A stretch of DNA of 20,000 nt from an uncultured virus (IMG/VR IMGVR_UViG_3300025120_000038) (IMGVR_UViG_3300025120_000038), one strand, 5' to 3'; shown: positions 11,479-16,585, counted from the stretch's first letter. The notes: a model not told the origin generated them from the sequence alone. Translations and numbers: made by a program.

Positions 11479-13713
11479 TTATTTTATTATCTCACTTCTT
11501 GATCCTTCGTTTCTATATTTTGATAGTTGAAAAGGAACTTTTGTAACTGTTTTTTCCGCTCTAGGACGGTATAAATGTTTTCGACAAGCCATTATAGCTA
11601 GGCCGCTGCTTATTGAAGCATCATGGGCTGTTCTACGAGATATATCAAAACGTGCCCAATCTTCAAGGGTTCTTTGGAAAAACATGTTTCCATTGTTTTC
11701 ACCAATTTTACCCACATATTCTTCAATATAAGATTCAATAGCAGAGGCATGGGCTTGCTTAATGTCTTCTGAAGAGTTAGGTATACCTCCTAATTCTAAT
11801 TCTGTTTTAGATAAGTTACCAACTAATTTATCAGGTCTATTCATAGAATAACCTCTATACCCTCTTCTTTTAAAATGATATAGTAATCTTGGTTTGTTAT
11901 TTTCCGCTAATAAAGGCATTCCATAAAATATACAAGCCATTAATACATCTTCAAAAAATATTTCAGCTGTTTGTGGCCTTGCTATATATTCTAAAAAAAA
12001 CTTACTATTTGGTACATCACTAACCATTGAAAATGTAGTTAACCCGTGTAAAGAACCATTTGATCCTCTACCACCTACTGTACCTGATATATCGTAAGGA
12101 TCACAGCCAAATGCACCCAACCCGTTATTAGCCGGATATTTTAATGTGTTTTTTATAACAATACTATTTTGCATAAGTGTTGGAGGAATCCACGATATTC
12201 TAAATCTACCATTAGCATTAGGTGTCCATATAACTTTTGTATCTTTAATGCCGTTTGCCCATCCAAAAGAGCCTTTTGATATATGCCCTTTCATTACCAT
12301 TTCTTCATTAAAATCTATTTGCTCATAAATTTTAGTTAAGTTAAATAATGAATTTAAAGTTTCATCTCTGAAAGCGTGTTTTTCAGATCTTGGAAATTGT
12401 CTATAATATTCATTTAAAGCATCAGAATCTTTTTTTAATCCTTCAACTTCATTTTCCCAGTGTTCAATGACCCCCGTATAGATGAGTTCACCATCAATTC
12501 CCTCAGCCGGTTTTGGTGGTGTATCGAATACAGGGTACCCATACTTATCGATAAATCCTTCGAAGCCCCATTCCATAGGAAGGAACAAAGCATATAATCC
12601 ACTTGTAGTCTGGCCATTGCGATTTCTATTTTCGACATTTGAATTATTATATAATTTTTTAAAGTTATCTCCTCCTTTTGCTAATGCATTAGAAGTAGAT
12701 CCCATCATACATTTGCCTACTATTTTTGAACCGAGCCTGAGACACGTTTTTGTGACCCTCCAGTTGTTGAGGATGTTGTCGGGCCTTTCCCATTTGCCCG
12801 ATTCATCATGGACGAGGAGTTGTAACTTTTCCCCATCATATGAATTGTCCCCGGTATTCTTCCAGTCGATTGTTGTATCGAGCCCCTTTGCCATTCCTTC
12901 ATCTTCCGTTTGTGTTTCTCGAATGGAATTTCTGGTAAGTCTTCTTGAGGGTATCTTATAGGAGAGCTCGGTTTTGGGGCGCTCCATACCGTCTTGAATT
13001 GGCTTGAAGAAGAATGGGTAGTTGATGGAGATTGGTACCACCTTGTCTGTAAACATCTTCTTCGCATCTGCTCCAGTCTTTGATAATATCCCAAACCTAG
13101 AGTCTTTTGAAGTTGTAGCCTGGTTGACGCACTCGGATGATGCCATAAAACTAAATCCAGACCTCCTGTTTTTAAGGTAGCACATTCCATAAGACCTGGA
13201 ATCTGCCTTGCAAGCCTCCCAGAAGTAGTAAAATATTCTATTTGCTTGTCTAAAGTCGGGTGACCCCACGTCGATCTTAGTCCAGTTGAGGTATATATAG
13301 TGTGATCCTGTAATGTAACACGGGGTACCGTTGCACATGAACCAGTAACCATCATTACGATAATTAAATTCATCGTCAATGTATTGGTAATATTCCTCTT
13401 TATTTTTTTCTGGATGCTTAGTGAAATCATATATGCTTTTTATTTTGTTTAGTGAATTAGGCTTTAATCTTTTTTTAAAATATTGATTTTCTTTTTTAAG
13501 GTCTTGACCTTCAATTATTTGAGGAATTTTAGGTAAACCTACCTTGAGACCTTGAATTTCATATATTTCTCCTAATGTACCATCTTTACTTATAATAACA
13601 CAATCTAATTCTTTATTGTAACCATATTTAAATTTTTTATGCTTATTAAAGTTTTTAACTGATCTATCATTAAGATGCTCATCGTATATATGATATAAAT
13701 TTTGTTTATACAT
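11479..13713 (-). CDS. terL: Terminase large subunit
   Basis: 744 aa. Walker A-like YLKNRRSGFS, Walker B LLVHDESGKW, coupling motif MGSTSN, RNase H-like nuclease motifs GCDPYD, LAENN, HDASISSG. Confidence 0.95.
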   Translation of the reverse strand: MYKQNLYHIYDEHLNDRSVKNFNKHKKFKYGYNKELDCVIISKDGTLGEIYEIQGLKVGLPKIPQIIEGQDLKKENQYFKKRLKPNSLNKIKSIYDFTKHPEKNKEEYYQYIDDEFNYRNDGYWFMCNGTPCYITGSHYIYLNWTKIDVGSPDFRQANRIFYYFWEACKADSRSYGMCYLKNRRSGFSFMASSECVNQATTSKDSRFGILSKTGADAKKMFTDKVVPISINYPFFFKPIQDGMERPKTELSYKIPSRRLTRNSIRETQTEDEGMAKGLDTTIDWKNTGDNSYDGEKLQLLVHDESGKWERPDNILNNWRVTKTCLRLGSKIVGKCMMGSTSNALAKGGDNFKKLYNNSNVENRNRNGQTTSGLYALFLPMEWGFEGFIDKYGYPVFDTPPKPAEGIDGELIYTGVIEHWENEVEGLKKDSDALNEYYRQFPRSEKHAFRDETLNSLFNLTKIYEQIDFNEEMVMKGHISKGSFGWANGIKDTKVIWTPNANGRFRISWIPPTLMQNSIVIKNTLKYPANNGLGAFGCDPYDISGTVGGRGSNGSLHGLTTFSMVSDVPNSKFFLEYIARPQTAEIFFEDVLMACIFYGMPLLAENNKPRLLYHFKRRGYRGYSMNRPDKLVGNLSKTELELGGIPNSSEDIKQAHASAIESYIEEYVGKIGENNGNMFFQRTLEDWARFDISRRTAHDASISSGLAIMACRKHLYRPRAEKTVTKVPFQLSKYRNEGSRSEIIK
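12435..12638 (-). CDS. Candidate nested ORF in +1 frame of terL (67 aa), function unknown
   Basis: ORF track entry in the same +1 frame as 12720..13430. Overlaps a GC island (30/60 at 12481-12540 vs 10/60 at 12301-12360). Confidence 0.3.
   Translation of the reverse strand: MSKIEIAMARLQVDYMLCSFLWNGASKDLSISMGTLYSIHHQNRLRELMVNSSIRGSLNTGKMKLKD
12720..13430 (-). CDS. Candidate nested ORF in +1 frame of terL (236 aa) with possible lipoprotein signal peptide
   Basis: 236 stop-free codons in an AT-rich genome. terL uses CTC/GTC/ATC/GGC-type codons here (29/60 G+C at 12781-12840 vs 10/60 at 13441-13500). N-terminus KKIKR...LTMNLIIVMMVTGS-C, with the Cys codon at 13337-13335. Confidence 0.5.
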   Translation of the reverse strand: MISLSIQKKIKRNITNTLTMNLIIVMMVTGSCATVPRVTLQDHTIYTSTGLRSTWGHPTLDKQIEYFTTSGRLARQIPGLMECATLKTGGLDLVLWHHPSASTRLQLQKTLGLGYYQRLEQMRRRCLQTRWYQSPSTTHSSSSQFKTVWSAPKPSSPIRYPQEDLPEIPFEKHKRKMKEWQRGSIQQSTGRIPGTIHMMGKSYNSSSMMNRANGKGPTTSSTTGGSQKRVSGSVQK

Positions 13714-13958
13714 TATTTTATACGATTTTCAACACCTAGAAAAGTTTTCTTTTCTTTGTTATTATTTTTTTTTTCAGAAAGTTCTTCAATTTTTTCTATT
13801 ATTTTTAAAGAATCTTCTATAGCAACCCATTTTGCTTGTGCTGCCATCTTAGCTTTTTCAGGATCAAGTTCAACTAAATCTATAGTTTGTCTAATTACTT
13901 TGTCTAATTCAACTAATGCTTTTTCAGCTGCTGAAATTACTCTTTTCCTTCGGTCCAT
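13713..13958 (-). CDS. Putative terminase small subunit
   Basis: 81-aa helical protein directly upstream of terL and coupled to it (TAATG at 13713). Assignment by position only. Confidence 0.5.
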   Translation of the reverse strand: MDRRKRVISAAEKALVELDKVIRQTIDLVELDPEKAKMAAQAKWVAIEDSLKIIEKIEELSEKKNNNKEKKTFLGVENRIK

Positions 13959-14511
13959 AGTTGATTGTTATTTGATTTGATAAAATACGATATAATTTTT
14001 GACCTTCAATATTAAATTCATATTCAGAATTAGGCGTAAACCCCACCACATTGCCTTTAGATACTCCTAAACGCGTTAATTCTTCATTTGAGTATATTAG
14101 CTCCCCATAAAGATTTATGTCCGTATAAAGGCTCCATTCATCATTTCTAAATACTGGCTTTACAAAACAATATCCCGGTAATGCTTTCCATTCATTTTCT
14201 TTTTTGTATCCAAATATTTGATCAGATGATACTATAAATTTATTTTCATCTATAAAACCGGCGGAATTTCTTTCATTGTTTCCTTGATCAAGCCATTTTC
14301 TAAATACATTATGATGTACAATAACTTGATCTCCTTCTTTTATAGTGGTTTTTTGGTTAGCTGGTGTTTTAATTACCGTGCCAATACGATTTACATAATG
14401 ATAATCTCTTTCGGTAATTTCTGTATTAACAATTAATTCTTTATTGTTTATATTAATTTTATTGTTATAACGATTTTCAGTAGATATGATATAGTCAAAT
14501 AATGATTGCAT
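13924..14511 (-). CDS. GroES/Cpn10-like co-chaperonin, apparently two tandem GroES-like domains
   Basis: 195 aa. Half 1: SLFDYIIS...IGTVIKTP....IKEGDQVIV. Half 2: ALPGYCFVKP...GELIYSN....GVSKGNVVGF...EYEFNIEGQKLYRILSNQI. Both echo the GroES pattern G.V.....V..GD.V.F....G..Y.I. Confidence 0.6.
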   Translation of the reverse strand: MQSLFDYIISTENRYNNKININNKELIVNTEITERDYHYVNRIGTVIKTPANQKTTIKEGDQVIVHHNVFRKWLDQGNNERNSAGFIDENKFIVSSDQIFGYKKENEWKALPGYCFVKPVFRNDEWSLYTDINLYGELIYSNEELTRLGVSKGNVVGFTPNSEYEFNIEGQKLYRILSNQITINYGPKEKSNFSS

Positions 14512-14743: not shown

Positions 14744-15088
14744 TTAGTATGTCCATATTGTTACAGGAGGTGCATCGGGATAACCAACACCCACATGTAC
14801 AAAATTCTTTTTTCTACTTATACCTATTCTTGTAAAACCCACATCTATTGCAGCTTTAACTAATTTATAAGTTGCCTTTCCCCCTGAACAAGCTATATCA
14901 ACTGCGGCTCCATATGCATGTTCCCCTGGTTTAGATTTTTTAGCTTCAATAGGATGATCGGGCGATCTATATGTAGATGTTAATTTAATTGGATAGCCAT
15001 ACGCTTCTCTTAAGTCATCTAACATGCTTAAAAGATTTTCATCCATCATTTCAAAATTATTAAATTCAGATTCAGTAAAGTATTTCAT
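14744..15088 (-). CDS. Endolysin, Zn-dependent peptidase M15A (Peptidase_M15_3-like)
   Basis: 114 aa with LDDLREAYGYPIKLTSTYRS, HAYGAAVDI (H-x6-D) and FVHV (third Zn ligand); adjacent to membrane proteins. Confidence 0.85.
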   Translation of the reverse strand: MKYFTESEFNNFEMMDENLLSMLDDLREAYGYPIKLTSTYRSPDHPIEAKKSKPGEHAYGAAVDIACSGGKATYKLVKAAIDVGFTRIGISRKKNFVHVGVGYPDAPPVTIWTY

Positions 15089-15091
15089 TTT

Positions 15092-15238
15092 TTATTCTTT
15101 TGCTTTCTTTATTATCATTAAAACTGTATATACTATTGTAAGTATTAATACAATTGTCTGTAATACAGGATTTAAGTTTGGCATAACTGAAACTAAAAGT
15201 GCTCCTATATTTAATCCGAATATTTTTAATTCGTCCAT
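15092..15238 (-). CDS. Small two-TM membrane protein, holin/antiholin-like (48 aa; start revised from 15304 to 15238)
   Basis: MDELKIFGLNIGALLVSVMPNLNPVLQTIVLILTIVYTVLMIIKKAKE: two hydrophobic segments and a basic tail. ATG 15238 lies 4 nt after the upstream stop, in an A-rich context. Confidence 0.65.
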   Translation of the reverse strand: MDELKIFGLNIGALLVSVMPNLNPVLQTIVLILTIVYTVLMIIKKAKE

Positions 15239-15242
15239 TTTT

Positions 15243-15659
15243 TTATTTATGTTTGTTGTTTCCAAAAACTTTTTCGACACCTCTAGATCCGAAATAGCCC
15301 CCAATCACGATTGTTAATAATGAAGTTATTGAGTCTAAAGGATATCCCATATACCAACCTACTACATAACTTACTGTTAAAAATACTAATACTAAAGGGC
15401 GAACATTAGATGCAAGAAATGATCCAGATCTTGCATCAGCCACCCAACGTCTTGTTGTGCCGTCAATTTCAGCACGCTCTAATTCTAATTTTTTTAAAGC
15501 AATATCTTTATCGGATTCTGACATATCACTTCCGCCTATAATTGCTTTAATAACCGATCCAACCGGGGTATCTCCCGCTATTGCACCAACGATGTTAGGA
15601 ATTTTGTCTAATAAAAATTTCCCTACACCGGTATCTTTAAATTTTTTTTTATCACTCAT
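15243..15659 (-). CDS. Holin-like protein (3TM/GTA-holin-like)
   Basis: 138 aa with RW.AD..S.SFLASNVRPLVLVFL and GGYFGSRGVEK motifs and two C-terminal hydrophobic helices. Confidence 0.75.
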   Translation of the reverse strand: MSDKKKFKDTGVGKFLLDKIPNIVGAIAGDTPVGSVIKAIIGGSDMSESDKDIALKKLELERAEIDGTTRRWVADARSGSFLASNVRPLVLVFLTVSYVVGWYMGYPLDSITSLLTIVIGGYFGSRGVEKVFGNNKHK

Positions 15660-15673
15660 TGTAATGTTATGCT

Positions 15674-16585
15674 TTATACTGTATATGTGCCGGAGCCATG
15701 AAATCTTAATATTGTATACCCAGGAACAGAGGTCGTGTCTGCTGTATATGTTCCTTGCGCATTTCCGCTAAAATTAGCATTTAAAATTTTTAATATTACT
15801 ACCCCAGAGCCTCCGCTACCTCCATAAGATTGATTACCCCAGTAAGAACTAGCACCAGCACCACCCCCGGTTCCAGTATTAGCATTACCACTATTTCCGT
15901 AATATTGAGAAATAGTTCCACTAGAATGTGGATAAAATCCATTTCCTCCTGAAGCCCCTGTGTTTCCTCCATAGCCATATCCACTTCCTCCACCAGGAGA
16001 GTATACAATAGCATTTCCTGTTATTGAATTACTAATACCATCACCTCCGTCGGCATATGGGGCACTTGAGCTTGTTCTTCCTGCAGTACCACTTCCGCTT
16101 GCGCCACCACCACTACCGCCTTCATCAGCATAAGATGAAACACCATTACCCCCAGCATTACCAGCTCCATTCCCATCTGGATTAGCTCCACTTGTAGATC
16201 CACCACCTCTAAATCCAGAACCAGCACCACCGGATCCTCCAGATCCTCCAGAATTTCCACCATAATAAGCAGGAAAAGTTGATGTACAACTTCCTCCTTT
16301 ACCACCGCCTGATACTGACACATTAATGCCAGTGCCTATTAAACTTGAGGATCCACCAGTACCAGCATTGTTACTTCCCGAAGTTGCTCCGGAGCCGCCA
16401 CTTCCAACTGTTATAGTTATTGGAGTAGTTGGTTCCATGTCTCCTGAGGTAGCAGCAATATATCCACCTGCTCCACCACCACCACCAAACCAAGCGCCAC
16501 CACCACCACCACCTCCAACTACTAAGTAATCAAAGGAATAAGGAATTGCACTTCCAAAAGCTGATAATAAACTTTGTCCAAACAT
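15674..16585 (-). CDS. Glycine-rich tail fibre/spike-associated protein
   Basis: 303 aa. DYLVVGGGGGGG..GGGGGAGG, ITVGSGG, NTGTGGG and GGSGGSGVVIL motifs typical of polyglycine phage tail domains. Confidence 0.8.
   Translation of the reverse strand: MFGQSLLSAFGSAIPYSFDYLVVGGGGGGGAWFGGGGGAGGYIAATSGDMEPTTPITITVGSGGSGATSGSNNAGTGGSSSLIGTGINVSVSGGGKGGSCTSTFPAYYGGNSGGSGGSGGAGSGFRGGGSTSGANPDGNGAGNAGGNGVSSYADEGGSGGGASGSGTAGRTSSSAPYADGGDGISNSITGNAIVYSPGGGSGYGYGGNTGASGGNGFYPHSSGTISQYYGNSGNANTGTGGGAGASSYWGNQSYGGSGGSGVVILKILNANFSGNAQGTYTADTTSVPGYTILRFHGSGTYTV

Follow-up and report, generated by a model that had tools for sequence, protein, structure and literature searches.

Candidate overprinted genes in the +1 frame of terL of an uncultured podophage, one of them encoding a putative lipoprotein

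A stretch of 20,000 nucleotides from the uncultured marine virus IMGVR_UViG_3300025120_000038 (IMG/VR), called the window here, holds the structural and packaging region of a podophage. Within its terminase large subunit gene, terL, we describe a long open reading frame (ORF) in the +1 frame of the same strand, ORF1. Comparison with relatives makes it almost certain that selection holds this frame open, and its product is probably lipidated at a cysteine that follows a lipoprotein-like leader. A second +1 frame, ORF2, lies further downstream in terL, and it is likely that selection maintains it as well. A preliminary description of the window had claimed an embedded gene with a lipoprotein-like start at the position of ORF1, and the comparison bears out selection both on the frame and on its leader. 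The parts needed first are on the minus strand, like all genes of the window:

11479..13713, minus strand: terL, terminase large subunit, 744 aa, host gene of ORF1 and ORF2 (PHROG 6681, E 1e-169; 45% identity to Elemovirus TerL)
12720..13430, minus strand: ORF1, 236 aa, ATG start, +1 frame over TerL codons 95-331 (ATPase half), recognised by its stop-free run and by comparative stop avoidance
12705..12707, minus strand: TGA forced in the +1 frame by TerL M336-M337, a stop in 99/99 sequences, which separates ORF1 from ORF2

The open +1 frame and its relatives

The claimed 236-codon frame is present (13430..12720) within a stop-free run of 239 codons (TerL codons 92-330), and the longest run in the +1 frame of the 15 other window genes is 104. 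With the codon usage of the window, 11.8 stops are expected in the +1 frame and the probability of finding none is 2.2e-9; with the usage of the GC-rich island in terL itself it is 1.0e-3. The codon-permutation test proposed earlier gave a run of this length in 0 of 5000 synonymous permutations. In the window sequence, all 21 stop-prone positions of ORF1 avoid the stop, compared with 35 stops at 70 such positions elsewhere in terL. The TGA that TerL M336-M337 force in all 99 sequences makes codon 331 nearly the longest possible end of ORF1. A readthrough product joining ORF1 to ORF2 was ruled out: ORF1 avoids TAG just as it avoids TAA, and the stretch between the two frames contains TAG as well as TGA. 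An antisense ORF at 12482-12961 was likewise rejected as a conserved gene, being open in 1 of 38 sequences.

Relatives were drawn from 600 viral and 560 metagenomic terL loci, the best 80 of each set being used, with two annotated records added and one locus with a split match excluded; 153 of 162 aligned rows spanned codons 92-430, and 99 were kept below 95% nucleotide identity. Of these, 47 form a main clade, 21 are carriers in a sister group and the other 31 are closed, with 5-16 stops. In the main clade, ORF1 ends at codons 327-331 in 38 members and at 282-315 in nine; in the sister group the ends range from 250 to 327. The sister group and the length classes were defined by stops, hence their zero-stop counts are circular, but this does not apply to the main clade, which is monophyletic on the protein tree of the TerL ATPase (47 tips, support 0.99; the trees were one quick tree and FastTree runs).

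In this clade, stop-making NTA codons (before a purine) between TerL codons 127 and 249 number 0/395, compared with 231/345 for harmless ones before a pyrimidine, so that the NTA avoidance claimed for the island is found precisely where a +1 stop would form. Counted per site, all members are free of stops at 12 of the 13 stop-prone sites of ORF1; in the rest of terL this holds for 0 of 47 such sites, and in six neighbouring genes for 1 of 205. The exception at one ORF1 site, L045, restarts at a downstream ATG. The corrected distance at four-fold degenerate sites in carriers is 0.76 inside ORF1 and 1.38 outside (351 pairs, which are not independent), and 0.96 and 1.00, respectively, in closed relatives (44 pairs). 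Thus neither frequent +1 stops nor normal synonymous divergence, which had been named as signs against an embedded gene, was seen in the main clade. Raw four-fold differences are reduced only slightly within ORF1, and therefore its mature chain evolves fast. Closed relatives have stop-making NTA codons at 292/623 and harmless ones at 246/404 over codons 127-326, a depletion that is possibly the trace of a lost ORF1.

The preliminary description had offered as an alternative that a terL segment was acquired by recombination from a higher-GC relative, leaving the frame open by chance. terL can indeed recombine: one relative, L087, has a closed-type N-terminus (codons 1-200) joined to a window-like remainder (201-737), with the break near codon 200. 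This remainder keeps the open half of ORF1, which is rich in GC at third codon positions (GC3), and the 2.5-kb contig is a recent recombinant or possibly a misassembly. As the source of ORF1, an imported segment is nevertheless extremely improbable. GC at first and second codon positions is equal in open and closed sequences, and in all 24 short variants GC3 drops past the stop of the respective lineage, whereas full-length carriers show a rise in the same windows, which argues for selection. NTA codons are frequent in the island where they are harmless, and trees of the island and of the C-terminal flank both return the main clade (for the flank with 44 tips, L087 among them, and support 0.86), the comparison of phylogenies that had been called for. 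The GC counts reported for the region (29/60, 29/60 and 10/60) are exact, and the remark that the island tracks the ends of the ORF holds at the downstream end. At the upstream end it does not: the GC3 rise starts near the cysteine (TerL codons 121-127) and the leader stays T-rich.

Leader, cysteine and mature chain of ORF1

The product of ORF1 can be divided as follows:

13431..13451, minus strand: A-rich initiation region of ORF1 without Shine-Dalgarno motif (66% A, compared with 28-76% at 16 ordinary window gene starts; no A at -3)
13338..13430, minus strand: putative leader, 31 aa, with a basic stretch, a hydrophobic stretch and T-G-S before the cysteine, recognised by hydrophobicity test and core pattern
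13335..13337, minus strand: Cys32, putative lipidation site, spanning TerL M126-C127
12723..13334, minus strand: predicted mature chain, 204 aa after the cysteine, rich in S, T, R, Q and P, with 29 K+R and 11 D+E and no transmembrane segment

The main clade starts ORF1 with ATG at TerL codon 95 in 40 of 47 members, with TTG in four and with a downstream ATG in three. The start at ATG 13373 that had been suggested as an alternative is poor, giving a 12-residue leader without a basic residue in a context of 42% A, compared with 66%. Codons 108-125 exceed the synonymous null in hydrophobicity in 97% of the 38 full-length main-clade members, and the z values of closed sequences are around 0. The cysteine is found in 47/47 main-clade members and a lipobox-like GSC in 44/47. 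Ser at -1 is kept through the rare codon TTC in 44/47, compared with 1/31 closed sequences. A PROSITE-type core pattern for lipoproteins (an n-region with basic residues, an h-region free of charge, a small residue at -1 and the Cys between positions 15 and 35) is matched by 44/47 members, mostly with the Cys at 32, and by 0 of 477 +1-frame cysteines from codon 430 to the end of terL. The boxes T-G-S-C (window) and I-G-S-C (the common form) deviate at -3 or -2 from the strict [LVI][ASTVI][GAS]C in the accessible text of PMC6139136, which also lists deviant lipoboxes such as LNGC and FVGC.

The sister group has its hydrophobic window at codons 122-139 (21/21), ending at a cysteine at codon 140, with the leader thus 14 codons downstream. 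TerL M140 is invariant in the 52 sequences outside the main clade and is lost in 41 of its 47 members, which we read as removal of the older cysteine. Many sister-type variants (proteins P0056-P0124) have the cysteine at residue 32 from an ATG, as in the main clade, despite the shifted leader.

A reading without lipidation has the leader as an uncleaved anchor or an ordinary signal peptide and the Arg-rich chain binding nucleic acid or acidic lipid, for example as an inner-membrane tether for phage DNA or packaging complexes. The strongly hydrophobic sister-group leaders (mean Kyte-Doolittle value, KD, 2.24), their non-canonical box L-I-T-C and the strong Arg preference and net positive charge of the chain would suit such a protein, and the sister-group cysteine is forced by TerL M-Y and occurs also in 31/31 closed relatives. 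We consider it rather unlikely, given that Ser at -1 depends on a rare codon in 44/47 members and that the hydrophilic switch starts right at the cysteine. As a general rule, a basic N-region also predicts an N-in, tail-out topology.

Past the cysteine the chain is more hydrophilic than the synonymous null in all 38 full-length members (z -3.2 to -4.3). Arg is favoured over Lys (0.64 versus 0.08), Thr over Ile and Ser over Leu, and 0 of 72 degenerate sites are fixed. The mature chain is thus selected for a hydrophilic, Arg-rich composition and not for fixed residues. No transmembrane segment was found after the cysteine (maximum KD over 19 residues, 0.99). In the AlphaFold model, which has an N-terminal helix, 193 of 236 residues have a pLDDT below 50. 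Disorder would give such values, but orphan proteins commonly do so too; the tail is probably unstructured. An acidic export signal past the cysteine marks surface lipoproteins of Bacteroidota in the accessible part of PMC5080379. Among the 68 carriers we found neither K-(D/E)2 nor Q-A-(D/E)2, and just one has D or E within the six residues after the cysteine.

Searches of Pfam, PHROGs and NCBIfam gave no family match for ORF1 or ORF2, and the best ESM Atlas scores in searches with the two (0.78 and 0.88) are leads only. A profile of ORF1 retrieved 153 proteins, 83 of them at E <1e-30. The 75 inspected among 150 listed looked like +1-frame gene calls of this terL family or frameshift chimeras, many with sister-type leaders, and 10 clusters that were looked up carried no names.

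ORF2 and the origin of both frames

12435..12638, minus strand: ORF2, 67 aa, +1 frame over TerL codons 359-426, with conserved D-Y-x-x-C-S-Y-L-W-N-G

ORF2 lies beyond the coordinates given in the preliminary description and was found through fixed rare codons at TerL 365-406. Its 81-codon run is unremarkable in one genome (99th percentile 109); the evidence is comparative, from sequence groups that were not defined on ORF2. In the main clade, stop-making NTA codons number 0/305 and harmless ones 162/278, none of the six stop-prone sites has a stop, and fixation is seen at 9 of 21 degenerate sites, compared with 5 of 93 in a control region. Residue constraint is hence tighter in ORF2 than in ORF1. 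Variation of the types TTA/CTA and AGA/CGA is confined to the +1 wobble position, which points to a protein and not to a nucleotide motif, and a conserved RNA structure as cause of the constraint was sought and not found (structure conservation index at most 0.32).

Every main-clade member has an ATG at codon 356 or 359 (27 only at 359, 18 only at 356, two at both), and this complementary usage switched 2-4 times on the trees. Such a pattern, together with the lack of a conserved RNA structure, makes it improbable that a +1 frameshift out of the TerL frame turns ORF2 into an alternative C-terminus and so yields an ATPase-only TerL variant. The frameshift would fit the A/T run that precedes the ORF2 region and the seven of 21 sister-group members without ATG in codons 345-360, several of which also lack one at 366.

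The predicted model of ORF2 is one helix (pLDDT 72.6, pTM 0.34). In our reading, the conserved M8, L11, Y15, C18, W22 and L36 line a heptad face, with W22 forced by TerL, and an amphipathic helix is predicted. ORF2 has a net charge of +4 with a neutral conserved core, and neither an export signal nor a transmembrane segment was found in it. Foldseek gave 0 matches of the model among viral structures, and a complex prediction with the ORF1 mature chain gave a score of 0.00 and no verdict. Among 49 protein matches (lengths of 24-168 aa searched), 21 were inspected and none is a stand-alone homologue; most are chimeras frameshifted with the TerL frame, the others short +1 translations. The terL of the cultured Cellulophaga phage phi38:1 (L165) has an 87-codon open +1 run from codon 466.

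A six-codon signature of ORF2 occurs in 64 of 68 ORF1 carriers and in 11 of 31 closed relatives, two basal ones among the latter perhaps by chance. ORF2 can therefore exist without ORF1 and may be older. In five annotated relatives at greater distance (Elemovirus A, phi13:2, phi38:1, Gundel and MW202828), the longest +1 runs in terL are 39-87 codons with flat GC3, and the basal lineages on the trees are closed as well. Thus the TerL frame is older and ORF1 is overprinted on it; judged from these comparisons, both ORFs were born by overprinting in the +1 frame of terL. The open or closed state of ORF1 changes 6-9 times on the trees, for which one gain and several losses is the simplest reading.

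Genomic context and possible function

The window carries tail-fibre genes, a lysis cassette of two holin-like genes and an M15 endolysin, a GroES-like gene, terL, and portal and capsid genes. A further gene, of 81 aa, we take as terS from its position only. The lysis cassette (14744..15659) lies upstream of terL on the same strand:

14744-15088, minus strand: M15 endolysin
15092-15304 and 15243-15659, minus strand: two holin-like genes
13924-14511, minus strand: GroES-like co-chaperonin gene (PHROG 13932), directly upstream of terS-terL, present in 94 loci

In 43 loci of the sister group or of closed relatives (for example L012, L018, L024 and L053), an acidic, coiled-coil-like gene of about 85 aa lies some 1300 bases upstream of terL. 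No main-clade locus has it; endolysin and holin occupy its place there. Two +1 ORFs (71 and 100 aa) also lie in a glycine-rich tail gene (15799-16323, minus strand), with Gly repeats as the likely cause. TerL matches 87 phage records among 50,697, best an uncultured freshwater phage (61%), Flavobacterium Elemovirus (45%) and Cellulophaga and Tenacibaculum phages (31-37%). The gene starts of the window are A-rich and lack Shine-Dalgarno motifs, as the accessible part of PMC6847099 describes for Bacteroidota, and the host would be flavobacterial. Contigs from three DNA runs closely match pieces of the terL region, which rules out that the window sequence is a product of faulty assembly. In one RNA run, contigs with a depth of about 2 overlap 12939-13188 and 13245-13499; they are unstranded, so that neither frame nor level is visible.

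ORF1 would be translated from the late terL message at its A-rich start, exported and lipidated at Cys32. Its long, flexible, polycationic chain would remain on the periplasmic side, because the acidic export signal is missing. There it may act on the envelope as an accessory factor, though not as a spanin, by weakening the layers or bridging them, so that the outer membrane gives way after holin and endolysin have acted; this last step is the weakest one. ORF2 would be a separately initiated small amphipathic helix without export signal, older than ORF1 and perhaps in the same pathway. This mechanism is suggested by where ORF1 lies, by its charge and by a precedent, a disruptin that is cationic (10.1101/515445, accessible text); taken as a whole, a periplasmic lipoprotein acting on the envelope at lysis is our preferred but tentative proposal. 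A more far-reaching version is doubtful. It holds that an envelope module of two genes arose de novo within terL in a widespread group of aquatic, flavobacterial-type podophages, ORF2 first and then the lipid-anchored, polycationic ORF1, which jointly breach the outer membrane of Bacteroidota in a new way, without spanins. In such a module the ORF1 leader would later have shifted by 14 codons, reshaping TerL residues, and the tail would run up to the stop forced by M-M.

Several observations weigh against a lipoprotein with a role in lysis. The window's own leader is atypical (31 aa long, Thr at -3, first Lys at residue 8), and in the sister group, with Thr at -1 and the box L-I-T-C, only 1 of 21 matches the core pattern. 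The distant L081, without ORF1, has TerL M-C at 126-127, so the cysteine can arise without the gene. ORF1 is absent in 31/99 relatives, some of them nested among carriers, and thus looks dispensable; in L087, which is closely related to the window, the N-terminal half of ORF1 is lost, be it by mosaicism or misassembly. A stand-alone upstream lipoprotein is found in 2 of 31 closed relatives within up to 4.2 kb, only 22 of them reaching 2.5 kb. The search for spanins covers 20 kb of the genome and one may be encoded elsewhere, and it is by position and charge alone that ORF1 is linked to lysis.

The preliminary description had seen in ORF1 a candidate for the missing spanin. It was right that no spanin is recognisable near the lysis cassette: we found none, and no i-spanin candidate, in the 20-kb window or in common upstream gene clusters. 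Of three pattern matches in all six frames of the window, ORF1 is also the sole credible candidate for a lipoprotein-like ORF, the other two falling in a stretch within TerL and in an antisense frame. Its +1-embedded layout resembles that of Rz1, and the accessible text of PMC6139136 describes unstructured linkers in o-spanins and lipoproteins without a linked i-spanin. Still, ORF1 is very unlikely to be a canonical o-spanin or u-spanin. It has no C-terminal transmembrane segment, which largely refutes a u-spanin, the window offers no type II membrane partner, ORF2 has no transmembrane segment either, and the C-terminus, where spanin halves meet, varies freely between TerL codons 250 and 331.

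The same lipoprotein could instead serve superinfection exclusion or lysis delay, by occupying a receptor on its periplasmic face or by binding a holin, with ORF2 as cytoplasmic partner. Phages have accessory, host-facing envelope proteins of this kind, such as the exclusion lipoproteins T5 Llp and Cor and the T4 antiholins RI and RIII. These are stand-alone and compact, unlike ORF1, and no match to them was found. The leader, the predicted periplasm-facing chain, the patchy occurrence with rapid residue turnover and the ORF2 signature in most carriers would all fit, and exclusion or delay is possible but not likely. A receptor blocker is expected to be folded and conserved in its residues, which the mature chain without a single fixed degenerate site is not; Pfam, PHROGs and NCBIfam gave no family match, and a place within a late gene seems a poor fit for exclusion.

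For an envelope lipoprotein acting at lysis, known systems offer partial parallels. As far as the text of PMC6139136 is accessible, the o-spanin genes lambda Rz1 (in Rz) and T7 18.7 (in 18.5) are likewise embedded out of frame, close to genes for lysis and terminase, and their products also combine a lipoprotein-like leader with a mature chain that is largely unstructured. ORF1 differs from both by its host gene, terL in place of an i-spanin gene, its strongly basic chain of about 205 aa, the lack of a partner and the variable C-terminus, and no sequence similarity was found. The T1 u-spanin gp11 (same source) shares the N-terminal lipoprotein signal and a single long periplasmic chain, but ORF1 has neither its C-terminal transmembrane segment nor predicted beta structure. 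The phiKT disruptin gp28 (10.1101/515445) exemplifies cationic disruption of the outer membrane without spanins, and ORF2 is of similar size and predicted to be helical. From what that text provides, gp28 is a free cationic peptide of 56 aa; ORF1 is four times longer and has a leader, and ORF2 is only weakly cationic. As had been pointed out, T7 19.2 and 19.3 (NC_001604) also are two tandem +1 ORFs in a podophage terL, starting at codons 216 and 395. They encode 85 and 57 aa, are annotated as hypothetical and have no N-terminal lipoprotein leader; T7 terL is not among the 87 phage records matched by TerL, and the likeness is therefore parallel and not homology.

We found no published account of an overprinted gene in this terL family, in a search that left most subscription journals outside. 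The accessible text of PMC10136315 has crAss-like phage lysis apparently using spanins and lysins and does not mention overlapping genes. Embedded lipoprotein genes of phages are known mainly as o-spanins inside their partner gene, and here the host is the gene of the packaging motor. About 41% of the essential terL (303 of 744 codons) would be double-coded with two unrelated genes, hence terL of this group is a biased marker in analyses of synonymous sites. The relatives give birth, loss, leader shift and varied tail lengths, an unusually complete series of gene origin by overprinting. According to the available part of PMC6139136, 91 of 677 phage genomes have no recognisable spanin. If either protein acts on the envelope, these genes would bear on how such phages breach the outer membrane.

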